From a virus (taxonomy: Duplodnaviria > Heunggongvirae > Uroviricota > Caudoviricetes): a stretch of DNA of 13,716 nucleotides. Shown here piece after piece: positions 1 to 13,716 of the stretch; the stretch's first letter is position 1, and every line of letters starts with the position of its first letter. Where the stretch lies: IMG/VR virus record IMGVR_UViG_2737471853_000004, positions 1-13,716 of that record; one strand, 5' to 3'. The position numbers and the translations under genes were made by a program. Under the pieces are notes generated by a model that ran no database searches, was not told the origin of the DNA, and saw only the letters and a program-made list of their open reading frames with translations.

Positions 1-69
1 AATAAAACCGGCATAGGCCACGCTATTTCATGGCTCTGGTTTTCTCTATTAAGGAGCTTCTGTAATGGC

Positions 70-588
70 TTATTCGATCAGCAATTCAGGCTGCGTTACC
101 TGCATGATGTGCTCATGCTCCACAGCCAGAACACGTTTCTCTTTCTTCCGCTCGTTCATCAACCGGCTGCCGATCGTGCCCTTCAACTTTGACCGCGTTT
201 CTTTGATGGCGTAGCGGTGCTGCATTTCTTCTCCCATCGCCATGCGTCGGCTTAGCTGCTCGGCCATCCAGTTAAAGGCATTGATGTAGCACTCCTTTAC
301 TGCGGCAGCTGTTTTTCCAGTGAACCCCATCACGAGCATCATGCATCCATCGCGTGTGATGTTATACATGGGCTGAACATCGCCATTTTTATCAATGAAA
401 TCAATGGGCGCAAAATTGCGCAGGGTGAAGTCGTCGGAGCATTTCAGGTTACGTATGGCGCGCAAAACGTCTTTGTGTCGCTTGCCAAAGTAGTCAGCCA
501 CCTTGAGTGATGTCGTGATTATCTTGTTGTCGAGGGTCGTGACCATTTCGCGGAAGTCGAAGGCCGGAATAACTGACGGATTATTCAT
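70..588 (-). CDS. rha: Rha-family phage regulatory protein (antirepressor-like)
   Basis: Translation contains TTSLKVADYFGKRHKDVLRAI and LVMGFTGKTAAAVKECYINAFN, which fit the Phage_pRha family as I recall it. Start trimmed to the Met of MNNPSVIPAF (ATG at 586-588); the longer ORF-track extension runs through the upstream terminator hairpin. Confidence 0.6.
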   Translation of the reverse strand: MNNPSVIPAFDFREMVTTLDNKIITTSLKVADYFGKRHKDVLRAIRNLKCSDDFTLRNFAPIDFIDKNGDVQPMYNITRDGCMMLVMGFTGKTAAAVKECYINAFNWMAEQLSRRMAMGEEMQHRYAIKETRSKLKGTIGSRLMNERKKEKRVLAVEHEHIMQVTQPELLIE

Positions 589-730
589 AGCGTCTTTACC
601 TTTTAGAAAGTGAGCCTGTCTCACAGAAAAGCCGCCCGAGAGAGGTCGCCACCTATAACGGCATTTCTCAGGCTCGCTTACTGAAAGGCTCTCGTTAATA
701 TGCGCGTGAGATGCGCTGTGAAATTCAGAT

Positions 731-755
731 ATAAAAAAGCCCCGCATCGCGAGGC
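731..755 (-). terminator. Candidate intrinsic terminator downstream of Rz
   Basis: On the minus strand, GCCUCGC-GAU-GCGGGGC (7 bp stem with one G-U, 3-nt loop) is followed by UUUUUUAUAU. The loop is tight, so confidence is moderate. Confidence 0.4.
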
Positions 756-787
756 TCATTAAATGGACTTTGTGATTTGCAAAAAAA

Positions 788-1225
788 TTATTTCAGGCAT
801 TGCGTCCTGATGTACTCCTGCAGGTAGTTAACCTGCGCGGTTATCCTGTCGATTCCACTTCGGAGACGGTAATAATTGAGTTCAGCATCTGCTGTAAGTC
901 CTGGGCTTTCTCCATCGCCCATGCCGCTGGCTCCGGTCGTTGACTTTGCACAGGTGGCGGCGACTTGCAGGCGCTTACGACCAGCAGAAACATCAGCACG
1001 GAGACTTTCGATAGTCGCGTTAGCATCAGCAAGCTCCTTTGTGTATCTGGCGTCGAGTTCTGCTACATCACGTTGACGCTTCTGCATGTCAGCGATGATG
1101 GATGTGGCTTTATCACGCTGATCTTTGTAGGCGATGGCGTTATCACGGTAATGATTAACAGCCCATGACAGACAGACGATGATGCAGATAACCAGAGCGG
1201 AGATAATCGCGGTGACTCTGCTCAT
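788..1225 (-). CDS. Rz: Rz-type i-spanin
   Basis: N-terminus [31 protein letters not shown] matches lambda Rz as I recall it; the remainder is diverged. Overlaps the R stop and sits directly after the endolysin, as in lambda. Confidence 0.85.
841..1032 (-). CDS. Rz1: Rz1-type o-spanin embedded in Rz in an alternative frame
   Basis: ORF lies wholly inside Rz. It has a lipoprotein-like signal with lipobox VSAC followed by a Pro-rich stretch ([13 protein letters not shown]), the typical architecture of embedded Rz1 genes. Confidence 0.7.
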
Positions 1226-1698
1226 ACCTCAATCTCTCTGACCGTTCCGCCTGCTTCTTTGAATTTTGCAATCAGGCTGTCAGCCTTATGCTCGAACTGA
1301 CCATAACCAGCACCCGGCAGTGAAGCCCAGATATTGCTGCAACGGTCGATTGCCTGACGGATATCACCACGATCAATCATCGGCAAAGCGCCACGCTCCT
1401 TAATCTGCTGCAATGCCACAGCATCCTGGCTTTTCGGAGAGAAGTCTTTCAGGCCAAGCTGCTTACGGTAGGCATCCCACCAACGGGAAAGAAGCTGGTA
1501 GCGTCCGGCGGCTGTTGATTTGAGTTTGGGGTTTAGCGTGACAAGTTTGCGAGGGTGATCGGAGTAATCAGTGAATAGCTCTCCTCCTACAATGACGTCA
1601 TAACCATGATTTCTGGTTTTCTGACGTCCGTTATCAGTTCCCTCTGACCACGCCAGCATATCGAGGAACGCCTTACGTTGATTATTGATTTCCACCAT
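1222..1698 (-). CDS. R: Endolysin R (lambda-type lytic transglycosylase)
   Basis: The 158-aa translation [39 protein letters not shown]... is recognisable as lambda R essentially along its whole length. Confidence 0.9.
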
Positions 1699-2005
1699 CT
1701 TCTACTCCGGCTTTTTTAGCAGCGAAGCGTTTGATAAGCGAACCAATCGAGTCAGTACCGATGTAGCCGATGAACACGCTCGTTATATAAGCGAGATTGC
1801 TACTTAGTCCGGCGAAGTCGAGAAGGTCACGAATGAACCAGGCGATAATGGCGCACATCGTTGCGTCGATTACTGTTTTTGTAAACGCACCGCCATTATA
1901 TCTGCCGCGAAGGTACGCCATTGCAAACGCAAGGATTGCCCCGATGCCTTGTTCCTTTGCCGCGAGAATGGCGGCTAACAGGTCATGTTTTTCTGGCATC
2001 TTCAT
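1682..2005 (-). CDS. S: Holin S (S107/S105 dual-start)
   Basis: 107 aa beginning [20 protein letters not shown] with the dual-start Met-Lys-Met motif. The upstream CCCCTTATTGGGG hairpin (sdi-like) and RBS match the lambda S leader. Confidence 0.9.
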
Positions 2006-2247
2006 GTCTTAGCCCCAATAAGGGGATTTGCTCTATTTAATTAGGAATAAGGTCGATTACTGATAGAACAAATCCAGGCTACTGTGTTTAGTAATCAGAT
2101 TTGTTCGTGACCGATATGCACGGGCAAAACGGCAGGAGGTTGTTAGCGCGACCTCTTGCCACCCGCTTTCACGAAGGTCATGTGTAGAAGTCCGCAGCGT
2201 AACTATCACTGATGAATTCAGGATAGCCAGTGGCTACGGCTCAGTTA

Positions 2248-2323
2248 TGGTGCTGTTTAACGGACTTGAACCGCTACCCATTCGCTTACAAGGCGACCGC
2301 TCTACCATTGGAGCTAAAACAGC
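2248..2323 (-). tRNA. tRNA-like gene, anticodon UGU by hand folding (Thr)
   Basis: The minus strand reads GCTGTTT-TA-GCTC-CAATGGTA-GAGC-G-GTCGC-CTTGTAA-GCGAA-TGGGT-AGCGG-TTCAAGT-CCGTT-AAACAGC-A-CCA. It has a 7-bp acceptor stem, a canonical D arm, a GGTTCAAGTCC T arm and an encoded CCA. The anticodon stem has one mismatch, so the isotype call is tentative. Confidence 0.55.
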
Positions 2324-2328
2324 ATGTT

Positions 2329-2403
2329 TGGCGGGACAGCGTGGACTCGAACCACGATAAGAAGGTTAACAGCCTTCCGTAATCACCTTTATACGACTGA
2401 CCC
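2329..2403 (-). tRNA. tRNA-like gene, anticodon GUU by hand folding (Asn); possibly degenerate
   Basis: The minus strand reads GGGTCAG-TC-GTAT...TTAC-G-GAAGG-CTGTTAA-CCTTC-TTAT-CGTGG-TTCGAGT-CCACG-CTGTCCC-G-CCA. T arm and anticodon arm are perfect and CCA is encoded. The acceptor stem has one T-T mismatch and the D stem is only 3 bp. Confidence 0.5.
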
Positions 2404-2466
2404 AAATAAAAAAAGCCACCGTTGCAACTTAAGAGTCACTAACGGCAGCTTACCTTCTAATTATGG

Positions 2467-2985
2467 CTAAATGGATAATTGCATGTCAAGGCTTTTAACA
2501 GCAACATGCTTAACTTTCTCAACACGTTTACGCATTTTGAAAGCATTTTGCATTGGCTGGTACAAAACAAATAACGATGCTTTCAGGATGTCGTCAATTT
2601 CGTTTCTACAGGTTGCCAGTGAAGGTTTTCTCCATCCCTCGCCACCACGTCCACACATCTTGCGTGGCTTTGCAGTCGCGTGATAGTAGGATGCAATTGC
2701 TCGCTTAGATGAACCATGAGCGTAGTAGCTGAGGAGGATGCCAAAGGCTTTTTTGTCAATGTACATGACGGAATCGACGACCTGAGAAATCAACATTCCA
2801 TCATCATCATTGCACATTGGCCTTGTCATAACTCTTCCCGGCTCTACGCTCTCCATGAACTTCGCTATTACGCTGCTCATGCGCTTTTCCAGACGACCTG
2901 AATAAACCCATGCGCCCCACAGTTCAAGCCAGCCATTCAGCCACTCGTGCTGCTCTTTGGTGAGGTTTAGTTCTCTTATGCCCAC
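2467..2985 (-). CDS. Late-gene antiterminator Q, non-lambda Q family
   Basis: 172 aa at the Q position between the nin region and the lysis cassette. Contains LELWGAWV and [13 protein letters not shown], which resemble the WGAW and Cys/Asp-rich motifs I recall from 933W-type Q proteins. It is not lambda Q. Confidence 0.65.
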
Positions 2986-3647
2986 GCGCCTTCTCCCTGT
3001 ACCTGAATCAATGTGAGGTTTCCGCAGAACACTGCGCCGGTATCGATATACATCTGGTTGGCAAACTTGAGTGGTTTCACTGCTGGCGTATGACCAAAGA
3101 TGAACGTGTCAGCTCCTTTGATTTCTTTCACGATCCCGTCTTGTGAGTTGCTGATTCGTTCGCGGTTCCAGATTACCTGCTGATGATCAACTGGCTTTCC
3201 AAATTCGTATTCGTCACAAGGATAATCGGCGTGGCAGATGACATATTTTTTACCTTCGCTCACCAGTTCGATGATTAACGGAAGTTCATCTGCTTTATGG
3301 GCAAGAGCTTTAGCCAGAATTTCTTTGTCGTAATCGAGATTAAAGAACCAGCCACCGCCATTAAACAGCCAGTGATTGACGTTTCCACGCTCTGATAAGC
3401 CATCAATCATCATTTGCTCATGGTTTCCACGTACAGCTCGGAACCAGGGGAATGTGATTAATTCCAGACATTCGACGTTCTCTGTACCGCGATCGACCAA
3501 ATCGCCAACCGAGATAAGCAGGTCTTTTTTGGTGTCGAATCCCATCGTCTCCAGTTTTTTCATCAGGTTCGTGTAGCATCCGTGCAGATCGCCAACTACC
3601 CAAATATTTCGGTATTTGCTGCCATCAATTTTTTCGTAATAGCGCAT
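2976..3647 (-). CDS. ninI: Ser/Thr protein phosphatase (lambda PP, NinI)
   Basis: [29 protein letters not shown]...GNHE carries the metallophosphatase GDxHG/GDxxDRG/GNHE motifs and is near-identical to lambda PP as I recall it. Start trimmed to MRYYEK (ATG 3645-3647). Confidence 0.9.
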
Positions 3648-3831
3648 CTCTTTCACTCCATCCGCGATGAACCATGAGAACGTCGTTGACGATGGCGTGC
3701 ATTTTCCCGTCTTTATCATCAACGTATTTTCTGACCGTACCGCGACTACATTTCAGTCTGCGTGCTACTTCTGTCTGGTTTCCGTATGCTTCAACGAGCA
3801 TGTCTGGAATGGTTTTTACTGAGAACGTCAT
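3625..3831 (-). CDS. ninH: NinH (small HTH protein)
   Basis: 68 aa [37 protein letters not shown]... matches lambda NinH. Its ATG overlaps the ninG stop as ATGA. Confidence 0.85.
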
Positions 3832-4439
3832 GCGGCCTCACTTCTGCTATTTCGCAGGTCTTTGAGTTTCTGTTGGTACTCTGCCTTGATCGCCTTGCAC
3901 TCTTCGATAGTCCAGCGATGGCGGCTATGGTTTGATTCGATTTCGTCTACTGCTTCCTGCCCTATGCGATTAATCAGTTCGACGCGATACGGAACGAGAT
4001 TTCCGCTTTTATGCTGGTTGCACACCACGCATTGCTTGTGAATATTGCGTTCATCAAATCGGAGTTGAGGTGCCGCAGCAGTTGTCCGGTAATGTCCGGC
4101 ATCCCACTGAGCAGACGTGAGCGTTCCGCACGAGATACATGGTAAGTCGCGGTCTCTTTCTCTGATGAAGGCGTTTACGGCTTGCTGGGCTTGTTTAATC
4201 CAGTAACTGCGGGGCTTTAAGGCGAGTTTTCGAATCTTCAGTTTATCTTTCTGTTTCTGCTCCTCTCGTCGTCGTTTCTTCTCTGCTGCTTTTTCCGCTT
4301 TTTCGCGTTCTTTGCTTCGTCGTTCGAGTGCTATCTTTGTTCCACACTCTGGAGAGCACCACCACTGATTAGCGAATGCAGGGTGAAACCATTCCCGACA
4401 TTCATCGTTTTTACATCGTCTTCGCGCTGGTTTAGCCAT
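3828..4439 (-). CDS. ninG: NinG / Rap recombination endonuclease
   Basis: 203 aa [33 protein letters not shown]... with Cys-rich clusters, matching lambda NinG (Rap). Confidence 0.9.
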
Positions 4440-4608
4440 CGTCTTCTTCCTCGTACATTGAGCTATTCGGATCGCTCATCAGTTCTGCGAAGCAGTGCTC
4501 ACACACGTGAACTTCCAGCACATGCAGCTTCTGACCGCAGTTAGCGCACGTTAAAGCCCGCTCGACGCTTTCTTTCTGGTATTGGAGGGATTGGGATGGG
4601 CTAAGCAT
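4432..4608 (-). CDS. ninF: NinF
   Basis: Not in the ORF track (58 aa). Hand translation of the minus strand gives [58 protein letters not shown], matching lambda NinF. Its stop overlaps the ninG ATG (ATGGCTAA). Confidence 0.8.
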
Positions 4609-4960
4609 TATTGGCGTCCTGCATCATGAGAAAGACAATCATGGCGGCGCGGAGGGAATTTTCATGTATAGCTCGCTTAGATTTACAGTCGGCCACACCA
4701 CGTGCACCCCACTCGTCTTCATCGAGATTGATAATGCTAATCCTGTACTTCTCAATAATCGGCCATGAGGCGCTAGGATCATTGCAGTAGTCAGGTAAAG
4801 GGTTTAATGGCTCAAAAGTTGTATCAGCATTTCCGTAATACCATTTGTTGGTGTTATTCCCTGATGTTTCCGGTTTACATGCCCAAAGGCCTTTAAAAAT
4901 TATGTCTCCTACCATTCTGTTAATTTCAAAATCACTTAACTGTGAATAATCCATTGTCAT
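4601..4960 (-). CDS. Hypothetical protein between ninE and ninF (NinX-like position)
   Basis: ORF occupies the slot where P22-like nin regions carry ninX; lambda has no gene here. Start is ambiguous: the ATG at 4958-4960 overlaps the ninE stop as ATGA, while the ATG at 4952-4954 has GAGGAA about 7 nt upstream. No catalytic motif recognised. Confidence 0.5.
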
Positions 4961-5133
4961 TTCCTCGCACGATGTCTTAGCCACCGGATATCCCACAGGT
5001 GAGCCGTGTAGTTGAAGGTTTTTACGTCAGATTCTTTTGGGATTGGCTTGCGTTTATTTCTGGAGCGTTTCGTTGGAAGGTATTTGCAGTTTTCGCAGAT
5101 GATGTCGGTGATACTTCGTCGCTGTCGTCTCAT
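4957..5133 (-). CDS. ninE: NinE
   Basis: [52 protein letters not shown]... matches lambda NinE. Start trimmed to MRRQRR (ATG 5131-5133), overlapping the methylase stop. Confidence 0.8.
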
Positions 5134-5657
5134 GCCGTCCTCCTGACGCCCTGCCCGATCGCCATCAATGCCGCTTTGGATACGGTAGTAAACATCCGTC
5201 GAGGACTGATGAACGGTCGCCAAATCAGCAGCATTGAGCCTTTGCTGTTTCCCTTCTTCTCCAGCCCCGTCGATGGTTCGATAAAATTAATCCGTCCATC
5301 AGTGATGATGCGAACTTCGTCAACGCTCTCCAGAGCCTTGCTGAACCATCCGACTGACATATCCTCTGGCACAAGCATCACTACCGTCTGTCGCTGTTGT
5401 ATGCACTGCTCAGCGGCTTTTTCTACCCACGGCCTGATATTGCTGTACGGTGGGTTATTCCAGATTGCACCGTGGCTTACCCACTCAGAATTGAGCGCGT
5501 CGTCGGCCTCAGTTAACCAGTGAGCGCACAGAGCATTTTTGTCGCTCGCTGCCGAATCCAGCCAGAATCCAAACTCAATATCCAGTGCATCAAAAAGCCA
5601 AAGCGGCGTTTGCCAGCAGTCCTTGTCGTGTGCTGGCGTATTTGATTTGATAGTCAT
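5130..5657 (-). CDS. Phage DNA N6-adenine methyltransferase (Dam-like, orphan)
   Basis: Contains the NPPY catalytic motif (IWNNPPYS) and a [12 protein letters not shown]-terminal region typical of the phage N6-adenine methylase family. Start trimmed to MTIKSN (ATG 5655-5657), overlapping the ninB stop. It sits where lambda has ninC/ninD. Confidence 0.8.
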
Positions 5658-6094
5658 GCAGCCCGATCTCCCCATCGCGCTTTCCATTCGAGAGCCAGTC
5701 GCGCTTCGTCTGACCACTTAACGCCACGCTCTGTACCGAATGCCTGTATAAGCTCTAATAGCTCCGCAAATTCGCTTACACGCATCCTGCTGGTTGACTG
5801 GCCTATTACCACAAAGCCATTCCCGGCAAGGTTAGGAACAACGTCCTGCTGCTTTAATGCAGCTGTAAAAACGCACTTCCAGCTTTCTGCATCCAGCCAG
5901 CGACCATGCCATTCAACCTGACGAGAGACGTCACCAAGGCAAGCCCAAAGCTTTCGATTCTGGTCTAAGCTGCGGTTGCGTTCCTGAATGGTTACTACGA
6001 TTGGTTTGGTTGGGTCTGGAAGGATTTGCTGTACTGCGTGAATAGCATTTTGCTGAAGTTCTGGAGATCGAATTTCAAAGGTCAGTTTTTTCAT
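5654..6094 (-). CDS. ninB: NinB (Orf recombination mediator)
   Basis: MKKLTFEIRSPELQQNAIHAVQQILPDPTKPIVVTIQERNRSLDQNRKLWACLGDVSRQ... is near-identical to lambda NinB. Start trimmed to MKKLTF (ATG 6092-6094) with GAGGGAAG upstream; the ORF-track extension begins at a TTG. Confidence 0.9.
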   Translation of the reverse strand: MKKLTFEIRSPELQQNAIHAVQQILPDPTKPIVVTIQERNRSLDQNRKLWACLGDVSRQVEWHGRWLDAESWKCVFTAALKQQDVVPNLAGNGFVVIGQSTSRMRVSEFAELLELIQAFGTERGVKWSDEARLALEWKARWGDRAA

Positions 6095-6110
6095 GACTTC
6101 CCTCTCCCCC

Positions 6111-6142
6111 AAATAAAAAGGCCTGCGATTACCAGCAGGCCT
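6111..6142 (-). terminator. Intrinsic terminator between ren and ninB (tR2-like)
   Basis: On the minus strand, AGGCCUGC-ugguaauc-GCAGGCCU (perfect 8-bp GC-rich stem, 8-nt loop) is followed by UUUUAUUU. The position matches lambda tR2. Confidence 0.6.
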
Positions 6143-6167
6143 GTTATTAGCTCAGTGATGTAGATAG

Positions 6168-6458
6168 TCATTGCCTTACCTCCATAAGCGCCCTATTAAT
6201 AAACGCCGTCATTGGATTTGCACATCCCCACCCCGTACCATCTTGATTTCTTTTAATTGGCTCCTTCTTCACTTTGCGTTTTGCATAAATAACCGTCTTC
6301 CACTTACGCTCAACAACACTCAAATGTCCTTGTTTCACCATATGCCTTGCTGCTTGAGCGATTCTGTTATTTGGTATTCCGGTGATCAGTGCTAATTCAT
6401 GTGGGGAGAATTGTTCATGAGTTTTCAGATATTCCAGGATGATTTCTTTTCCAGTCAC
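6168..6458 (-). CDS. ren: Ren-like protein
   Basis: 96 aa starting MTGKEIILEYLKTHEQFSPHELALITG, similar in its N-terminus, length and position to lambda Ren. The start codon appears to be GTG (6456-6458) with AGGAG 6 nt upstream, overlapping the DnaC-like stop. Confidence 0.65.
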   Translation of the reverse strand: MTGKEIILEYLKTHEQFSPHELALITGIPNNRIAQAARHMVKQGHLSVVERKWKTVIYAKRKVKKEPIKRNQDGTGWGCANPMTAFINRALMEVRQ

Positions 6459-7300
6459 GATCTGCTCCTGTAACTATCCCATGTAAACGCAAGAGTGCAC
6501 CCGCCGCCATCATTCATCCTGTCAATAACACGCTCACCAATGAATGCAGACAGTTCATCTTTGCTCTGGTTGCTAATCAGGATTGTTGGCTTCATGCGCT
6601 CGTAGCGGGTGTTGATGATTTCGAACATGATCATCTTTTCCGCCTCGCTTCCAAACTGCACACCAACCTCATCGATAATTAGCAGGTCAGGTTTAGTGAA
6701 CTGTCGGATCACTTCATCCTCTGTGCGGGTGGAGTTTTTCGACCATGTTGATTTATATTCTCTGGCAATTTTCAGCGCCGTTGTGAAAATAGCTGAGCTT
6801 TGATGTTCCGTAATTGCGTGCCGGGCGATAGCCAGTGCAAGATGATTCTTTCCAGTACCAGGCTTTCCACACATAACCAGCCCACCGCCTTTCTGTAACC
6901 TCTCAGGCCATTTGCTGGCGTATGCCTGACACACCCTGAGCACTCTCTTTGCATCGTCGTTGACTGGCTCGTAGTTCTGTAGTGTGCAACCCTTGAATCG
7001 TTCAGGAATATCAAGATTATTCAACAGAAACTCGACATTGCGCTTACGTGATTCCTCGTCGATTTTAATCTTCTCTGCCTGTAGCCGAATAAGCTCATCT
7101 CTCATGCATTCCGGGCATTCGCTAGGTCTTGAGGCAAACTTAATTGGCCCAGTCGAGTAACGGTTACGCTGCTCAAACTCACCATGTTTTTCACAGATGC
7201 CAGTGCCAATTTCTACAGATGTATGCTCGATAGCAATTGGCGGAGAACTCAATTCTGCAAGTTTTTTCTCCAGTTGGGAGATCTTTTCATCCAGCGTCAT
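6455..7300 (-). CDS. DnaC-like replicative helicase loader (AAA+ ATPase)
   Basis: Walker A GKPGTGKNHLA, Walker B LLIIDEVG, and an N-terminal Cys-rich region. Start trimmed to MTLDEK (ATG 7298-7300) with AGGAG 5 nt upstream. It occupies the lambda P position. Confidence 0.85.
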   Translation of the reverse strand: MTLDEKISQLEKKLAELSSPPIAIEHTSVEIGTGICEKHGEFEQRNRYSTGPIKFASRPSECPECMRDELIRLQAEKIKIDEESRKRNVEFLLNNLDIPERFKGCTLQNYEPVNDDAKRVLRVCQAYASKWPERLQKGGGLVMCGKPGTGKNHLALAIARHAITEHQSSAIFTTALKIAREYKSTWSKNSTRTEDEVIRQFTKPDLLIIDEVGVQFGSEAEKMIMFEIINTRYERMKPTILISNQSKDELSAFIGERVIDRMNDGGGCTLAFTWDSYRSRS

Positions 7301-7302
7301 GT

Positions 7303-8145
7303 TCACTCCTGCGCCCATGAAGGCATTTCAGTTTGTCCGTAATCTTTGGTGGCAAAGTTTTCCTGCATAGCTCGATGCTGCGGCCTCGGTTGAGATTTCC
7401 CCTTTGGAGTCTTGGGCTCAAAAATCCCCTGCCAACCACTGGCGATGCTCTGGTTTATAATTTCTTCAGGTGTATATCCCTTCTCCAGACTTCTGCTTAG
7501 AACGTTGATAGCCTGAGTGACGCTTTGCTTAGACTTGATCGACTTACCTATCTCCTTACGATAGGTAACCCACGACAACCATGTTTCTGCTGATAACCAA
7601 TCAGGCAACTCTGTTTCTAGCGGGTCGAACTTCTGAGAAACTTTTTTGGGGGATATAGGGGGTTTATTAATATTTTCTTTTGTCTTTAAAGAATGTCTTT
7701 TGTGTGTCTCTAACTTCGAGACATTGAGTGTCTCTAATTTGGAGACATTTTTTGTCTCTAACTTCGAGACAAAGTTGCTAACTTGGAGACACTTGCTGAA
7801 TTGCCACGCAGATACCTCCCTGTTTACACCGATTTGATTTCCATCCATAAACAGGCAATTCATTGAAATCAGTTCTTTTTTAGCCTTGTTAACATTCTGC
7901 CTTGATAGTCCTGTTAACTGAGCAATTTGCTCATCGGCTATTCGATCTGTTTTCTTATTGAATCCATATGTTTTCCGGACGTAGGCCAGCATAACTTTCA
8001 ACTGGCGAGCGGTTAAATCGGCACTTGCGATAGCTTCCAGCAGCTCGTTAGCGAATCTGGTGTAACCATCATCGATATCAGCCACTCTTCGCTCCTGTTC
8101 AACAGGTTCACTCTTCGGCAGGTAAAATACTTCAGCCAGGCTCAT
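7303..8145 (-). CDS. O: Replication initiator O-like protein (origin-binding N-domain, non-lambda C-domain)
   Basis: The N-terminal region DDGYTRFANELLEAIASADLTARQLKVMLAYVRKTYGFNKKTDRI parallels the lambda O N-domain. The central VSKLET repeats are encoded by the iterons. Start chosen at MSLAEV (ATG 8143-8145) with GGAGG 6 nt upstream. Confidence 0.8.
   Translation of the reverse strand: MSLAEVFYLPKSEPVEQERRVADIDDGYTRFANELLEAIASADLTARQLKVMLAYVRKTYGFNKKTDRIADEQIAQLTGLSRQNVNKAKKELISMNCLFMDGNQIGVNREVSAWQFSKCLQVSNFVSKLETKNVSKLETLNVSKLETHKRHSLKTKENINKPPISPKKVSQKFDPLETELPDWLSAETWLSWVTYRKEIGKSIKSKQSVTQAINVLSRSLEKGYTPEEIINQSIASGWQGIFEPKTPKGKSQPRPQHRAMQENFATKDYGQTEMPSWAQE
7705..7791. repeat. Replication-origin iterons, four about 19-bp inverted-symmetry repeats at 24-bp spacing
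   Basis: TGTCTCTAACTTCGAGACA at 7705-7723, TGTCTCTAATTTGGAGACA at 7729-7747, TGTCTCTAACTTCGAGACA at 7753-7771, and TTGCTAACTTGGAGACA at 7775-7791. An AT-rich tract at 7640-7700 flanks them on the side downstream in the O reading direction, the same arrangement as lambda ori inside O. Confidence 0.75.
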
Positions 8146-8776
8146 TTCCAACCTCCGCATCAAAGCATTGGGCTTCAAGAGACTTAACCATCACCACACT
8201 GCCATCTGTATTAATAACTATCGATGAGTTATATTTGCTTATCAGTTGCTTCGCGTAATCAATTCCGGCGCGAATAAGGAAATTTTTCACCGCAGGAAGA
8301 TGACCAACTACACTACCCAGACCTTGCTCTATAAGCTCCTCATTAAGATCAAGCTCATTTTCATGGCGAAAAGAAATGAATGAGTCGTAAATTGCGTATT
8401 CTGCCGTCTCGCCATTTCTTTCAGGGCCAACCAGCGCCCTTATTTCATTTAGAGATTCATAAAGATCATTATCTTCAAGCTTGAAAAACTCTCGATTATC
8501 ACTAAGCCTCTCTTTTGCAAAGGCTTTATGAATAAGTTTTTCATCTGATGCGGGATTATTTGAATGAAAGGCTGCTATCACCTTAAATGGCTTAGGAACG
8601 CCAGTAGAGGCTGAAATTTCTTTAGCCCTAACTTCTGGTGAATGCTTAGTCATCCCAATCTTATAAATTCCCGGCATGCACTCATTCGAAAGCACATAAA
8701 CAAAGCCATTTGATTTAAAATCATCTGGCACCTTCATGCTCTTCAGAACCTGGAATTTGTCATTTTCGTATGTCAT
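8132..8776 (-). CDS. T5orf172 / GIY-YIG-like domain protein, function unknown
   Basis: GFVYVLSNECMPGIYKIGMTKHSPEVRAKEI...KLIHKAFAKERLSDNREFFK fits the T5orf172 motif pattern as I recall it. AGGAG lies 5 nt upstream of the ATG. It is inserted between cII and O, where lambda has no gene, and its last 14 nt overlap the O start. Confidence 0.5.
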   Translation of the reverse strand: MTYENDKFQVLKSMKVPDDFKSNGFVYVLSNECMPGIYKIGMTKHSPEVRAKEISASTGVPKPFKVIAAFHSNNPASDEKLIHKAFAKERLSDNREFFKLEDNDLYESLNEIRALVGPERNGETAEYAIYDSFISFRHENELDLNEELIEQGLGSVVGHLPAVKNFLIRAGIDYAKQLISKYNSSIVINTDGSVVMVKSLEAQCFDAEVGNEPG

Positions 8777-8810
8777 AATTACTCCTGTGGATTGATCCAG
8801 TCTTTCTACA

Positions 8811-9089
8811 TCAGGCCTCGAAGAATTCGCCGTTCTTCGGGGCTTTTTCTTTTGTCAGCATTCTGGCTACTTTCTTAGCCAGTTCAGCCAACTCCTCGTC
8901 TTCAACACCCCATTCAAGAACAGCCAGAAGCATGGCCATCTTTGGGATAAAGCTGTCTTTCCATCGCGAAATTTGCGATTCATTGATCCCTAATGCATCA
9001 GCAACCTTTCGCTGACCACGTACAGCAATTCGATTCAGGATGTTGCTTGTAATTGCATTCGCTTTCTTGCGAGTACTTGTAAGTTGCAT
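8811..9089 (-). CDS. cII: CII-like transcriptional activator
   Basis: MQLTSTRKKANAITSNILNRIAVRGQRKVADALGINESQISRWKDSFIPKMAMLLAVLEWGV parallels lambda CII (SQISRWK and MLLAVLEWGV conserved), though the protein is diverged. The upstream leader TTGTTATCTAAGGAAATACTTACATATG is the lambda cII leader. Start trimmed to this ATG (9087-9089). Confidence 0.8.
   Translation of the reverse strand: MQLTSTRKKANAITSNILNRIAVRGQRKVADALGINESQISRWKDSFIPKMAMLLAVLEWGVEDEELAELAKKVARMLTKEKAPKNGEFFEA
8814..8853 (+). terminator. Intrinsic terminator antisense to the cII 3' end (oop-like)
   Basis: Plus strand CCUCGAAGAA-uucgccg-UUCUUCGGGG (10-bp stem with one G-U, 7-nt loop) followed by CUUUUUCUUUU. It lies antisense to the cII 3' end, as the oop terminator does in lambda. 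Confidence 0.6.
9043..9056 (+). promoter_or_regulatory. Candidate CII-binding site TTGC-N6-TTGC (PRE-like)
   Basis: TTGCTTGTAATTGC on the plus strand, inside the cII N-terminal coding region and oriented toward cro and cI. The tetrad repeat is perfect, but the -10 is not clear and the spacing to the cII ATG differs from lambda. Confidence 0.4.
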
Positions 9090-9168
9090 ATGTAAGTATT
9101 TCCTTAGATAACAATTGATTGAATGTATGCAAATAAATGCATACACCATAGGTGTGGTTTAATTTGAT

Positions 9169-9200
9169 GCCCTTTTTCAGGGCTGGGATGTGTAAGAGCG
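9169..9200 (-). promoter_or_regulatory. nutR (boxA and boxB)
   Basis: The minus strand reads CGCTCTTACACAT (boxA, 9188-9200) and GCCCTGAAAAAGGGC (boxB, 9169-9183), between cro and cII. Confidence 0.8.
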
Positions 9201-9207
9201 GGGTTAT

Positions 9208-9417
<210 letters not shown>

Positions 9418-9432
9418 TTAGTACATGCAACT

Positions 9433-9502
9433 ATTATCACCGCTAGAGGTAAAATAGTCAACACGCACGGTGTTAGATATTTATCCCTTGCGGTGATAGA
9501 TT
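9433..9502. promoter_or_regulatory. Right operator OR1-OR2-OR3 with divergent promoters PR and PRM
   Basis: OR1 at 9435-9451 (TATCACCGCTAGAGGTA), OR2 at 9459-9475 (CAACACGCACGGTGTTA), OR3 at 9482-9498 (TATCCCTTGCGGTGATA). PR -35 TTGACT and -10 GATAAT are on the minus strand; PRM -10 TAGATT is at 9497-9502 ahead of the cI ATG at 9509. Confidence 0.9.
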
Positions 9503-9505
9503 TAA

Positions 9506-10222
<717 letters not shown>

Positions 10223-10253
10223 TTGTTTTATTTTTCACGTAATAGGATGATTT

Positions 10254-11015
10254 ATGACACAGTTTCAACTTGCATTAATCGCTAGAGAAGTTGATGGAGA
10301 AGTCATCCATCTTCGCACCAAAGACGGATACATCAATGCCACCGCGATGTGCAAGTCTGCGGGGAAGCTACTTGCTGACTATACACGACTAAAAACAACA
10401 CAAGATTTTTTTGATGAATTATCACGCGATATGGGGATTCCCATATCGGAGTTAATTCAATCATTTAAAGGCGGAAGAGCAGAGAATCAAGGGACTTGGG
10501 TTCATCCAGACATCGCAATTAATTTAGCTCAGTGGCTATCTCCAAAATTTGCAGTGCAAGTATCGAGATGGGTGCGTGAGTGGATGTCAGGTGAAAGAGC
10601 GCCTGCCGAACTCCCTATCCACCTTAAGCGGTATATGACAAACCGAGGCAGAGTTCCTCATACGCACTTTTCTATGCTTAATGAACTGACGTTTAACTTG
10701 GTTGCGCCACTTGAACAGGCCGGATATACGCTGCCAGAAAAAATGGTCCCTGATATTTCAGAGGGTAGGGTTTTCTCGCAATGGCTCCGTGACAACCGGG
10801 GGGTTGAGCCGAAGACATTCCCAACATATAACCATGAGTACCCAGATGGCCGGACATTCCCGGTACGTCTATACCCAAACGAATATCTTGCAGATTTCAA
10901 ACAACACTTCAACGAAGTGTGGCTGCCTCAGTACGCTCCTAAATATTTTGCTGAACGAGACCAAAGGGCATTGACGTTGATTGAGAAAATCATGCTACCT
11001 GACCTTGATTCCTAA
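10254..11015 (+). CDS. KilA-N domain protein in the rexAB position (candidate BstA-like abortive-infection protein)
   Basis: The N-terminal roughly 110 aa (GEVIHLRTKDGYINATAMCKSAGK...GTWVHPDIAINLAQWLSPKFAVQVSRWV) fit the KilA-N fold pattern; the C-terminal roughly 140 aa are unassigned. The gene starts 31 nt after the cI stop on the same strand and is followed by a terminator. Confidence 0.6.
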   Translation: MTQFQLALIAREVDGEVIHLRTKDGYINATAMCKSAGKLLADYTRLKTTQDFFDELSRDMGIPISELIQSFKGGRAENQGTWVHPDIAINLAQWLSPKFAVQVSRWVREWMSGERAPAELPIHLKRYMTNRGRVPHTHFSMLNELTFNLVAPLEQAGYTLPEKMVPDISEGRVFSQWLRDNRGVEPKTFPTYNHEYPDGRTFPVRLYPNEYLADFKQHFNEVWLPQYAPKYFAERDQRALTLIEKIMLPDLDS

Positions 11016-11021
11016 ATGTTA

Positions 11022-11046
11022 TTCCCGGCCAAGAGCCGGGTTTTCT
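11022..11046 (+). terminator. Intrinsic terminator ending the cI / KilA-N transcription unit
   Basis: CCCGGC-caaga-GCCGGG (6-bp GC stem, 5-nt loop) followed by TTTTCTTT, 7 nt after the stop codon. Confidence 0.6.
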
Positions 11047-11204
11047 TTGCCTCACGATCCCCCTCACCCAAGAACACATAACCAATTGTATTTATTTGAA
11101 AATTAATAGATACAACTCACTAAACATCGCAATTCAGATCTCTCGATCACCTTCCCAATCCACACAACCCTGCAAAGAATAAATCTATATAAAAACATAC
11201 AGAT

Positions 11205-11267
11205 AACCATCTGCGGTGATAAATTATCTCTGGCGGTGTTGACATAAATACCACTGGCGGTGATACT
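11205..11267 (+). promoter_or_regulatory. Left operator OL3-OL2-OL1 with promoter PL
   Basis: OL3 AACCATCTGCGGTGATA at 11205-11221, OL2 TATCTCTGGCGGTGTTG at 11225-11241, OL1 TACCACTGGCGGTGATA at 11249-11265. PL -35 TTGACA at 11239-11244 and -10 GATACT at 11262-11267, reading toward N. Confidence 0.9.
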
Positions 11268-11307
11268 AAGCACATCAGCAGGATGCACTGACCACCATTG
11301 AAGGTGA

Positions 11308-11338
11308 GGCTCTTAAAAATTTAGCCCTGAAGAAGGGC
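11308..11338 (+). promoter_or_regulatory. nutL (boxA-like and boxB)
   Basis: boxB GCCCTGAAGAAGGGC at 11324-11338 is preceded by GGCTCTTAAAAA (boxA-like, with a first-base difference from the CGCTCTTA consensus). Confidence 0.8.
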
Positions 11339-11448
11339 AGCATTCAAAGCAGAAAGCTTTGAGTAGCGCGAAATGCAGCTGCAAGACAGCAACCGTGGAG
11401 ATAAGCATCACGGCGCGTTACTCAAAGCTAACTGACAGGAGAATCCAG

Positions 11449-11775
11449 ATGGATGCACAAACACGCCGCCGCGAACGTCGCGCAGAGAAACAGGCTCAAT
11501 GGAAAGCAGCAAATCCCCTGTTGGTTGGGGTAAGCGCAAAACCAGTTAACCGCCCTATTCTCTCGCCGAATCGCAAACCGAAATCACGAGTAGAAAGCGC
11601 ACTGAATCCGATAGACCTTACGGTGCTGGCTGAATACCACGAACAGATTGAAAGCAACCTGCAACGTATTGAGCGCAAGAATCAGCGCACATGGTACAGC
11701 AAGCCACGCAGTGAAATGGGTGTGACTTGTGTTGGTCGCCAGAAAATGAAATTAGGCAGCAAACCACTTATTTGA
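11449..11775 (+). CDS. N: Antiterminator N
   Basis: MDAQTRRRERRAEKQAQWKAANPLLVGVSAKPVNRPIL..., with the arginine-rich boxB-binding motif; lambda N-like but diverged toward the C-terminus. Start trimmed to the ATG at 11449 with a GGAG RBS. Confidence 0.9.
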   Translation: MDAQTRRRERRAEKQAQWKAANPLLVGVSAKPVNRPILSPNRKPKSRVESALNPIDLTVLAEYHEQIESNLQRIERKNQRTWYSKPRSEMGVTCVGRQKMKLGSKPLI

Positions 11776-11785
11776 GGACTGATAC

Positions 11786-12028
11786 ATGAGAGTAAAAACT
11801 ATGGGCGCAAGCCCATTAAGTGGTCGTATTTTTCAAGGAACATTAAACACTGAAAAAGGAATGTGGGTGGGAAAGAAAGAAGATGTAACCGAACAGGCAG
11901 TTAAGGCAGTAGCTGAACACATGATGATAAAAGACCAGAAATATGCATACGAAACGAAGGATGGCAAATGGCTGATAATAAGTCATCAAATAGTTGATAA
12001 ATTACCAGAAGAGTTTATTGCTGATTAA
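11786..12028 (+). CDS. Hypothetical 80-aa protein immediately downstream of N
   Basis: GAGGA lies 7 nt upstream of the ATG, 11 nt after the N stop. No family recognised. It occupies the region where lambda carries ral and sieB. Confidence 0.5.
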   Translation: MRVKTMGASPLSGRIFQGTLNTEKGMWVGKKEDVTEQAVKAVAEHMMIKDQKYAYETKDGKWLIISHQIVDKLPEEFIAD

Positions 12029-12156
12029 AATTATTTTGGCATAAACAACAGAATAAACACTGCACTGTGTATTCATTCCAACGAGTGAATACACGGAGCA
12101 ATGTCGCTCGTAACTAAACAGGAGCCGACTTGTTCTGATTATTGGAAATCTTCTTT

Positions 12157-12183
12157 GCCCTCCAGTGTGAGGGCGATTTTTTA
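12157..12183 (+). terminator. Intrinsic terminator (tL2-like) upstream of ea10
   Basis: GCCCTC-cagtgt-GAGGGC (6-bp stem) followed by GATTTTTTAT. Confidence 0.55.
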
Positions 12184-12202
12184 TCTATGAGGATATGAAT
12201 AG

Positions 12203-12571
12203 ATGTCAAACATCAAAAAATACATCATTGATTACGACTGGAAAGCATCAATAGAAATTGAAATCGACCATGACGTAATGACAGAGGAAAAACTTCACCA
12301 GATTAATAATTTCTGGTCAGACTCTGAATACCGACTCAATAAACACGGCTCTGTATTAAATGCTGTATTAATCATGCTGGCGCAACATGCTCTGCTTATA
12401 GCAATTTCAAGCGACTTAAATGCATATGGTGTTGTGTGTGAGTTCGACTGGAATGATGGAAATGGTCAGGAAGGATGGCCTCCAATGGATGGTAGCGAAG
12501 GAATAAGAATTACCGATATCGATACATCAGGAATATTTGATTCAGATGATATGACTATCAAAGCCGCCTGA
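12203..12571 (+). CDS. ea10: Ea10-like protein
   Basis: 122 aa MSNIKKYIIDYDWKASIEIEIDHDVMTEEKLHQINNFW... with an acidic C-terminus. I recall it as lambda Ea10, and the position upstream of cIII agrees. Confidence 0.7.
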   Translation: MSNIKKYIIDYDWKASIEIEIDHDVMTEEKLHQINNFWSDSEYRLNKHGSVLNAVLIMLAQHALLIAISSDLNAYGVVCEFDWNDGNGQEGWPPMDGSEGIRITDIDTSGIFDSDDMTIKAA

Positions 12572-12594
12572 GCGCAGCGTTACCGCATACCAAT

Positions 12595-12620
12595 AACGCT
12601 TCACTCGAGGCGTTTTTCGT
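12595..12620 (+). terminator. Candidate hairpin plus U-tract between ea10 and cIII
   Basis: AACGCUUC-acuc-GAGGCGUU (8-bp stem with one G-U) followed by UUUCGUUAU. The U-tract is interrupted, so this may be an attenuator or RNA-processing structure rather than a full terminator. Confidence 0.35.
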
Positions 12621-12643
12621 TATGTATAAATAAGGAGCACACC

Positions 12644-12808
12644 ATGCAATATGCCATTGCAGGGTGGCCTGTTGCTGGCTGCCCTTCCGAATCTTTACTT
12701 GAACGAATCACCCGTAAATTACGTGACGGATGGAAACGCCTTATCGACATACTTAATCAGCCAGGAGTCCCAAAAAATGGATCAAACACTTATGGCTATC
12801 CAGACTAA
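12644..12808 (+). CDS. cIII: CIII (FtsH inhibitor)
   Basis: Not listed separately in the ORF track. Hand translation from the ATG at 12644 (AAGGAG RBS) gives [54 protein letters not shown], which is lambda CIII. Confidence 0.85.
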   Translation: MQYAIAGWPVAGCPSESLLERITRKLRDGWKRLIDILNQPGVPKNGSNTYGYPD

Positions 12809-12920
12809 ATTCACTATCGCCACTTTTATTGGCGATGAAAAGATGTTTCGTGAGGCCGTCGACGCTTATAAAAAATGGATATTAATACTGAAACTGAGAT
12901 CAAGCAAAAGCATTCACTAA
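12777..12920 (+). CDS. kil: Kil (host-killing, FtsZ inhibitor)
   Basis: [47 protein letters not shown] (47 aa) matches lambda Kil. It overlaps the cIII 3' end in another frame, as in lambda. Confidence 0.8.
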
Positions 12921-13027
12921 TCCCCTTTCCTGTTTTCCTAATCAGCCTGGCATTTCGCGGGCGATATTTTCACAGCCATTTTCAGGAGTTCAGCCATGAA
13001 CGCTTATTACATTCAGGATCGTCTTGA
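12875..13027 (+). other. Short ORF encoding a Gam-long N-terminal-like peptide, out of frame with gam
   Basis: Hand translation gives [50 protein letters not shown]. Its first roughly 35 aa resemble the N-terminal extension of lambda GamL, but the frame diverges just before the Gam ATG. Confidence 0.35.
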
Positions 13028-13292
13028 GGCTCAGAGCTGGGCGCGTCACTACCAGCAGATCGCCCGTGAAGAGAAAGAGGCAGAACTGGCAGACGACCTG
13101 GAAAAGGGTCTGCCCCAGCATTTGTTTGAATCGCTATGCATCGATCATTTGCAACGCCACGGGGTCAGCAAAAAAGCCATTACCCGTGCGTTCGATGACG
13201 ATGTTGAGTTTCAGGAGCGCATGGCAGAACACATCCGGTACATGGTTGAAACCATTGCTCACCACCAGGTTGATATTGATTCAGAGGTATAA
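12996..13292 (+). CDS. gam: Gam (RecBCD inhibitor), short GamS form
   Basis: 98 aa [56 protein letters not shown]... matches lambda GamS. GGAG RBS upstream. Confidence 0.9.
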
Positions 13293-13297
13293 AACGG

Positions 13298-13716
13298 ATG
13301 AGTACAGCACTCGCAACGCTGGCTGGGAAGCTGGCTGAACGTGTCGGCATGGATTCTGTCGACCCACAGGAACTGATCACCACTCTTCGCCAGACGGCAT
13401 TTAAAGGTGATGCCAGCGATGCGCAGTTCATCGCATTGTTGATCGTCGCCAACCAGTACGGCCTTAATCCGTGGACGAAAGAAATTTACGCCTTCCCTGA
13501 TAAGCAGAACGGCATCGTTCCGGTGGTGGGCGTTGATGGCTGGTCCCGCATCATCAATGAAAACCAGCAGTTTGATGGCATGGACTTTGAGCAGGACAAT
13601 GAATCCTGCACATGCCGGATTTACCGCAAGGACCGTAATCATCCGATCTGCGTTACCGAGTGGATGGATGAATGCCGCCGCGAACCATTCAAAACCCGCG
13701 AAGGCAGAGAAATCAC
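13298..13716 (+). CDS. bet: Bet (Red-beta single-strand annealing protein), 3'-truncated by window end
   Basis: Hand translation from the ATG at 13298 gives MSTALATLAGKLAERVGMDSVDPQELITTLRQTAFKGDASDAQFIALLIVANQYGLNPWTKEIYAFPDKQNG..., which is lambda Bet. The ORF runs off the end of the window. Confidence 0.9.
   Translation, partial: MSTALATLAGKLAERVGMDSVDPQELITTLRQTAFKGDASDAQFIALLIVANQYGLNPWTKEIYAFPDKQNGIVPVVGVDGWSRIINENQQFDGMDFEQDNESCTCRIYRKDRNHPICVTEWMDECRREPFKTREGREI

Follow-up and report, generated by a model that had tools for sequence, protein, structure and literature searches.

A probable λ-type replication origin with its own iteron sequence inside the initiator gene of an mEpX1-like lambdoid phage

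The replication origin of bacteriophage λ, oriλ, consists of four 18-bp iterons and a 38-40-bp A+T-rich region within the O gene (PMC3349717; PMC5043065; PMC6022878). Dimers of the λ O protein bind the iterons, which were identified as O-dimer sites by footprinting (PMC5043065; PMC7466680), and open the adjacent A+T region on supercoiled DNA, and the origin is activated by pR transcription (PMC3349717; PMC5043065; PMC6022878). The protein also binds A/T-rich single-stranded DNA (PMC7466680). In λ the N-terminal domain of O and the iterons determine origin specificity and the C-terminal domain recruits the helicase loader (PMC6022878), and the principle that iterons are specific to their initiator has already been stated for λ, P22 and L (PMC8022706). 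The present study concerns a 13,716-nucleotide stretch of DNA from a Caudoviricetes virus (IMG/VR record IMGVR_UViG_2737471853_000004, positions 1 to 13,716), referred to as the window, in which an array of iterons followed by an A/T-rich tract is embedded in an O-family initiator gene. In its anatomy the locus is a λ-type origin, a type recognized since 1979, whose iteron specificity is distinct and whose loader is of the DnaC type. We consider it very probable that it serves a lambdoid (mEpX1/N7/Bas106-like) E. coli phage or prophage as its origin of theta replication, built like oriλ inside the initiator gene.

The initiator gene and the elements within it, with the iterons numbered in the direction in which O is read, are the following.

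7303..8145, minus strand: O-family replication initiator gene, 280 amino acids (PF04492, TIGR01610)
7773..7791, minus strand: iteron 1, a half-site, TGTCTCCAAGTTAGCAACT in the O direction
7753..7771, minus strand: iteron 2, TGTCTCGAAGTTAGAGACA, coding for VSKLET and forming a perfect 6-bp dyad
7729..7747, minus strand: iteron 3, TGTCTCCAAATTAGAGACA, an exact match to the pattern, 24-bp period
7705..7723, minus strand: iteron 4, TGTCTCGAAGTTAGAGACA, adjoining the A/T-rich tract
7663..7704, minus strand: A/T-rich, purine-skewed tract of 42 bp, by its GC content the presumed DNA unwinding element
7648..7662, minus strand: C-rich element CCCCCTATATCCCCC bordering the A/T tract on the side away from the iterons, encoding PPISP of a Pro-rich linker

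The product of the initiator gene matched PF04492 (E 4e-36, 123.8 bits, cut-off 28.7) and TIGR01610 (E 1e-31, 108.9 bits, cut-off 45.5), which bore out a first-pass annotation of the DNA that had placed the array inside an O gene. The phage O N-terminal DNA-binding domain extends from approximately residue 22 to residue 119 (7789-8082) and is followed by a linker, residues 119-165 approximately, that is encoded by the iterons and the A/T tract. Residues 9-119 were 48% identical to λ O, and BLASTP beyond residue 119 found no similarity. A GGAGG ribosome-binding site is located 6 nt before the O ATG at 8145, and the same start is used in the annotation of phage Bas106.

Within the window there were exactly three occurrences of the pattern TGTCTC-N7-GAGACA (7705-7723, 7729-7747 and 7753-7771), where 0.01 sites would be expected by chance, and none of 200 dinucleotide-preserving shuffles reached three. 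Tandem Repeats Finder reported the same region (7700-7771, period 24, 3.0 copies, score 109) and no second substantial tandem array over the 13.7-kb window. Directly after the N-domain, the O reading frame contains three exact dyad-symmetric sites and a half-site (7705-7791). Four dyad copies spaced 24 bp apart had been claimed initially; the three full iterons are perfect and keep this period, but the remaining copy, iteron 1, has an intact first arm and a second arm, GCAACT, with three mismatches to GAGACA, and is spaced 20 bp from iteron 2, the same distance as between ITN1 and ITN2 of λ. Similarly, the VSKLET linker thought to be encoded by all copies is encoded by three of them, the reading frame running ...CLQVSNF VSKLETKN VSKLETLN VSKLETHK..., whereas iteron 1 is translated as CLQVSN in another frame. 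Iteron 1 was nearly unchanged among the closer relatives, and the junction between iteron 4 and the A/T tract, GAGACACACAAAAGACA, was common to all relatives. Neither a DnaA box with up to one mismatch nor the IHF consensus was found within the O gene region 7300-8200, no GATC was present within 7550-7850, and Rfam gave no match in the origin region.

The array abuts the A/T tract, which lies downstream in the O reading direction, on the side that had been proposed; the bounds first given, 7640-7700, proved inexact, the proper tract being 7663-7704 and positions 7648-7662 being C-rich. The 40-mer at 7664-7703 has a GC content of 17.5%, compared to a window mean of 46.2%, which is the joint-lowest value among all 40-mers of the window, and it is the second least stable by nearest-neighbour energy. 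The tract starts with the 12-mer ACACAAAAGACA, the same sequence that λ has at that place, and holds two copies of a shorter motif, ACAAAAGA, at 7696-7703 and 7676-7683 on the minus strand.

The resemblance to oriλ extends to several features, 1) the origin is inside the O gene, just after the region coding for the N-terminal DNA-binding domain, 2) the spacing of the sites, which are dyads of 18-19 bp, is 20/24/24 in the window and 20/24/23 in λ, where the iterons start at 39034, 39054, 39078 and 39101 of the λ record, and 3) the last iteron runs straight into ACACAAAAGACA and then into an A-rich tract that is about 40 bp long and lies on the same side. As in λ, the window origin lies beyond cro and cII, and it may belong to a pR operon, the promoter in the window being a consensus match. 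The 12-mer is located 433 nt into λ O and 440 nt into the window O, in codon phase 1 in λ (D-T-K-D-T) and phase 2 in the window (T-H-K-R-H), and because it is read in differing frames it has been kept as DNA and not as protein. There are also differences. The arms of the window iterons are (T)GTCTC/GAGAC(A), while those of λ are TCCCTC/GAGGGA, and the first site in the window is a half-site. Past the A/T tract the window has the C-rich element and λ a GAATTC-centred palindrome. Moreover, the C-terminal domain of the window O is unrelated to that of λ, and its partner gene encodes a DnaC/IstB-like AAA+ protein instead of P. The λ layout, the unlike iteron sequence and the exchanged loader had all been recognized in the first-pass annotation.

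Other described phages have the same architecture with different parts. The gene 18 origin of P22, and phage L, also have an O-family initiator with its own iterons in the gene, and behind these come ACACAAAAGACA and a C5-N3-C5 element, but the repeats are of the TTTACC...GGTAAA type and P22 has its own DnaB-type helicase, gp12, in place of a loader. Klebsiella phage 6 LV-2017 combines an O that is 49% identical over 97% of its length with a DnaC-like loader, but has TTACC arms that match a different putative recognition helix. PhiR12_5 and phiES15, which have O and P, differ in having GTCAC and TTAGC arms, respectively, each with its own putative recognition helix. In the Shiga toxin (Stx) phages 933W and P27, the number of iterons inside O also varies in frame, with six in Stx phages compared to four in λ (PMC7466680). 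The Stx phages differ in that the λ iteron sequence and the P loader are retained. Plasmid iterons are located outside the rep gene and usually act together with DnaA boxes. This combination was not found in the window, where the sites are palindromes inside the initiator reading frame, although the plasmid origins of pSC101, R6K, RK2 and P1 likewise have replicon-specific arrays of initiator sites beside an A/T-rich unwinding region (PMC5043065).

Relatives of the locus were collected in two ways. A protein-based scan with one genome per species gave 77 O-family loci with 31-91% N-domain identity; all conservation statistics were derived from this sample, in which 12 lineages, 58-91% identical in the N-domain, are of the GTCTC type and contribute 36 full iteron units. 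A DNA-pattern scan of viral contigs, which required two adjacent perfect iterons and is biased toward perfect arms, gave 65 contigs, and all of those reaching the region had an O N-domain at least 73% identical directly upstream. The orientation of the pattern-scan loci was anchored on GAGACACACAAAAGA, and the last iteron started with AGTCTC in six of them.

In 69 of the 77 O-family loci, the motif ACAAAAGA was present in the 360 nt that follow the N-domain, behind the iterons. Its density was 4.0 per kb after the N-domain and 0.07 per kb elsewhere on the same strand, a 59-fold enrichment over the flanks, and the median distance of 87 nt past the domain end places it directly after the last iteron. 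There are usually two to three copies about 15 nt apart, in the order ACAAAAGACA, about 5 nt, ACAAAAGACA and then AAGACA. The motif, noted in the window, among loci L069-L145 and in L002, L146 and L148-L151, occurs with every iteron type and loader type, in Enterobacterales, Aeromonas, Burkholderiales and several candidate-phyla-radiation (CPR) and other metagenome-assembled genomes (MAGs). The motif also occurs in λ, P22, Klebsiella phage 6 LV-2017, phiES15, PhiR12_5 and mEp213, with a variant form, ACAAGAACAAGAACA, in φ80. Of the loci, 49 read it as T-K-D and 15, the window among them, as H-K-R, and two have it in the third frame. No description of the motif was found in the searchable literature, though a resemblance among λ, φ80 and 82 may already have been pointed out in the papers of 1979-81 that PMC5043065 cites. 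The proposal that ACAAAAGA(C)A is more than A/T-rich filler and forms a specific element shared by all of the O family is a tentative one, to which we assign a rather low probability. Such an element could act like the DnaA trios of bacterial oriC, with the opened strand being engaged there by an invariant part of O (e.g. RKTYG(F/W)NK) or by the helicase complex as it arrives, or it could be a homology patch for the recombination of N-domain/iteron modules with different loader modules. The ACAAAAGACA element is the one lead that may repay experiments.

Variants of the C-rich element, of the form C5-N3-5-C5, followed the A/T tract in many loci of differing iteron types, as well as in P22, phiES15 and Klebsiella phage 6 LV-2017. 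The copy at 7648-7662 may be a boundary mark of the unwinding zone, and the constraint could be on the DNA or on the Pro-rich linker that it encodes. The variants, often followed by G5 to form a G/C palindrome, recur in non-λ-P modules, and modules of the λ-P type had GATTATTCGTC(A/C)GAGAATTCTGGCGAATCCTCTGAC in place of the C5-N3-5-C5 element.

A repeated perfect 5-N7-5 dyad was located just after the N-domain in 51 of the 77 loci; many distant loci had none by this strict criterion. The arm types and the motif at the putative recognition helix of the corresponding O proteins were paired as follows.

GTCTC arms: helix motif SRQNVNKAKKEL, 12 of 12 loci
GTCAC arms: helix motif PRQKVN.AKNEL, 16 loci
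TTACC arms: helix motif LPHKCSAAKS.L, 8 loci
TTAGC arms: helix motif HHTHVCKAKN
GTTAC arms: helix motif AKAHVSVAVREL
TCCCTC arms (λ): helix motif PVKRCNEAKLEL
TTTACC arms (P22): a helix of its own

The arm type tracked the putative recognition helix and not the overall identity of the proteins. Locus L137, 63% identical overall to the window, had TTAGC arms, whereas L077, at 58%, had GTCTC arms. The named phages showed the same co-variation, and between iteron types both arms always changed in a compensatory way. The co-variation, to which linkage adds some of the signal, was seen across the 51 dyad loci and together with the synonymous constraint described below is consistent with specific binding of each iteron type by its cognate initiator. 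A search of the PDB by sequence found no solved O structure. The motif SRQNVNKAKKEL with GTCTC-N7-GAGAC is a new cognate pair, and the nearest pair, PRQKVNKAKNEL with GTCAC-N7-GTGAC, is only one arm position away, making it a convenient start for a specificity swap and for orthogonal λ-type replicons.

The gene that takes the place of λ P overlaps the 3' end of O.

6455..7318, minus strand: DnaC/IstB-like AAA+ helicase-loader gene, 287 amino acids, overlapping the O 3' end by 16 nt

Its product contains an AAA+ domain of the DnaC/IstB/DnaA clade (PF01695, E 1.8e-18; PF00308, E 3e-8) and matched the DnaC model NF005931 with an E value of 2.8e-45, but the score of 154.8 bits was under the equivalog cut-off of 357. 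Judged by these matches, the loader is a relative of the DnaC family and no orthologue of E. coli DnaC. The λ pair of a PF06992 loader and a λ-like O C-terminal domain was not found; the downstream gene matched the IstB_IS21, DnaA-ATPase and DnaC models, and there was no Phage_lambda_P downstream. In the mEpX1 and Bas106 records the gene is annotated as a DnaC-like helicase loader. The N-terminal 130 residues or so form an extension with a Cys/His pattern (ICEKH ... ECPEC) that is zinc-ribbon-like in appearance. A 242-residue loader subtype in relatives is without this extension, and the O C-terminus of about 20 residues (ENFATKDYGQTEMPSWAQE) is found together with the long subtype.

Loci with the same N-domain and GTCTC iterons were found with several different partners, 1) a λ-like O C-terminal region and a PF06992 P protein in L071, 2) DnaB-type helicases in L078, L051, L054 and L082, 3) a DUF6475 protein in L070 and L043 and 4) DnaC/IstB-like loaders of two subtypes, one in the window and L015 and the other in L069, L075 and L060. 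The O C-terminal region and the loader type changed together across loci, and the specificity module meets the loader module, at a mosaic joint, in or just beyond the conserved A/T tract. In Hafnia phage Pocitis76, for example, identity with the window continued through the C-rich element and then collapsed. These loci support the division of labour known from λ. Loci L071, L073 and L074 (Pantoea) have λ-type O C-terminal regions with P joined to this N-domain and GTCTC iterons.

By homology and by analogy with λ, initiation at this locus would proceed as follows. Transcription of the minus strand from the pR-like promoter would yield O and the loader and would cross the origin. Dimers of the O N-domain, probably a winged helix, would bind the three palindromic iterons, with core GTCTC-N7-GAGAC and a 24-bp period, and the upstream half-site would probably be bound weakly. 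The bound O would form a bent 'O-some' that, together with negative supercoiling, would melt the 42-bp A/T tract starting with ACAAAAGACA. The non-λ C-terminal domain of O would then recruit the phage DnaC/IstB-like AAA+ loader complexed with host DnaB, replacing λ P. The opened strands would thereby receive DnaB, and replication would pass to host primase and Pol III. The anatomy of the locus, its homology to oriλ, the constraint on the iteron arms, their co-variation with the putative recognition helix and the linkage of the O C-terminal region to the loader type were established in the present data, and the binding of O, the opening of the tract, the recruitment of the loader and origin activity as such are extrapolated from λ and from homology.

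Several points weigh against the assignment of the locus as the replication origin or against parts of this scheme, 1) the searchable literature contained no experimental evidence for this phage type, 2) contact between O and the loader was deduced from synteny alone, 3) the N-domain is within about 60 bp of the iterons and the helix segment about 60-200 bp from them, so that co-inheritance contributes to the co-variation, 4) the putative recognition helix was placed by a weak alignment (E 0.02-1) to the helix-turn-helix of winged-helix regulators, 5) a single-sequence AlphaFold2 model of the O N-domain had a pLDDT of 44 and was unusable, 6) iteron 1 is degenerate, leaving three full sites compared to four in λ and 7) the window is 13.7 kb of a genome of about 40 kb, which leaves room for a second origin elsewhere. 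The last two points also favor the alternative that the iterons are true O sites that serve mainly in titration or autoregulation, as handcuffing-type control or as a relic, with the working origin elsewhere in the phage genome. We think this improbable. Next to the array is the 40-mer with the joint-lowest GC content in the window, the ACAAAAGA motif present in that tract is a mark of the origin side in λ, in P22 and in nearly all members of the family, the window has no other tandem array and, according to the account of Moore et al. 1981 given in PMC7466680, three iterons are enough for normal growth of λ.

A second alternative, that the repeat is a protein-level VSKLETxN linker expanded by slippage and has no cis-acting role as DNA, would account for the in-frame 24-bp unit with its three VSKLET copies and for the copy number that differs among relatives, up to five iterons. 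The pattern of conservation argued otherwise. Among the 36 units, all arm positions were invariant except two (35/36 and 31/36), or 99% of the 5-bp-arm bases, while the majority base at the four central positions was present in only 44-69% of the units and the spacers varied freely. At the third codon positions inside the arms (GTC, GAG), 6 of 6 columns were invariant. Among the N-domain columns of these sequences that have an invariant amino acid, only 1 of 16 four-fold and 2 of 22 two-fold sites were invariant. Moreover, the central codons changed the amino acid (K/N/S/D/R and L/P/S). Synonymous arm sites that are frozen next to central codons that change the residue indicate that selection acts on the palindrome and not on the VSKLET peptide. 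In addition, iteron 1 has the same DNA in a different frame, dyad symmetry has no rationale at the protein level and the palindromes that homologues carry in this position differ. We therefore regard a repeat of purely protein-level meaning as very unlikely, more so than titration.

The least credible alternative is that the palindromes are RNA or DNA hairpins, acting as transcription pause sites or terminators or as translational regulators in O and not as protein sites, for although each unit could form a 6-bp stem, the arms change in compensatory fashion between iteron types and a terminator scan flagged 7726-7750 on the plus strand as a hairpin with a T-run, all copies within a genome share their arms, the arm type tracks the putative recognition helix, there is no G-U-type variation, the flagged hairpin is antisense to O and footprinting has identified their homologues in λ as O-dimer sites (PMC5043065; PMC7466680). 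The flagged segment 7726-7750 corresponds to iteron 3 and its A5 spacer on the antisense strand and was discarded as a by-product of the palindrome.

The reading of the locus as a λ-type origin applies to several known phages. The O region was 99% identical to that of Escherichia phages CurroJimenez_Bas106, N7 and mEpX1, in whose records the gene is called 'O-like replisome organizer' or 'replication protein' and no origin is annotated. A 191-bp origin segment was present in 47 of 5426 complete E. coli genomes (about 1%), always in the chromosome and annotated only as 'replication protein'. Searches of the accessible literature for mEpX1 and for lambdoid phages with DnaC and iterons found no description of the GTCTC iteron type, the founding comparative papers of 1979-81 being outside their reach. 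The origin sequence is already public in several phages and prophages, where it is unannotated and, as far as we could find in the searchable literature, undescribed. The analysis thus assigns a replication origin to the mEpX1/N7/Bas106-like phages and to related prophages in these E. coli genomes. The picture of lambdoid replication is unchanged, and the importance of the assignment is modest.

The arrays of some relatives differed from that of the window. L005, L014, L026 and L047 have one extra 24-bp iteron, five in all, the copy number varying by whole 24-bp units. In L016, a second copy of iteron 4 stands in place of iteron 3 and its spacer, pointing to slippage or gene conversion inside the array. 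The O genes of L076 (Morganella psychrotolerans) and L143 (Serratia symbiotica) are broken by frameshifts or stops, with a 25-nt iteron spacing breaking the frame in L076; the iterons and the ACAAAAGA motif are still recognizable in both, which look like decaying prophage origins.

The genes around the origin form a lambdoid early-right operon, with cI on the opposite strand.

9433..9461, minus strand: pR-like promoter TTGACT-17-GATAAT, a consensus match only, upstream of cro
9208-9408, minus strand: cro, lambdoid early-right operon
8811-9149, minus strand: cII, lambdoid early-right operon
8132-8776, minus strand: T5orf172/MUG113-domain gene (GIY-YIG-related), 214 amino acids, between cII and O
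9509-10222, plus strand: cI

Judged by the consensus match and the gene order, transcription from the pR-like promoter would cross cII, the T5orf172 gene, O and the origin. Genes of the ren-like and nin types are located beyond the loader on the minus strand. The end of the T5orf172/MUG113 gene overlaps the start of O, and in phage Bas106 this gene is annotated as 'hypothetical protein'. The gene is missing from mEpX1, in which O directly follows cII and the first 15 or so O codons differ accordingly. A strong terminator-like hairpin at 8813-8855 on the plus strand, with a 14-bp stem and a T-run, is antisense to the 3' end of cII, where λ has its oop RNA terminator, and a search of Rfam found nothing for it. 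Elsewhere in the window, a KilA-N domain gene (10254-11015, plus strand) lies beside cI, two tRNA genes are present in the late-regulatory region (2251-2403, minus strand) and a λ cIII thermoregulator element (Rfam RF01804, 88.5 bits) was found at 12631-12689 on the plus strand.

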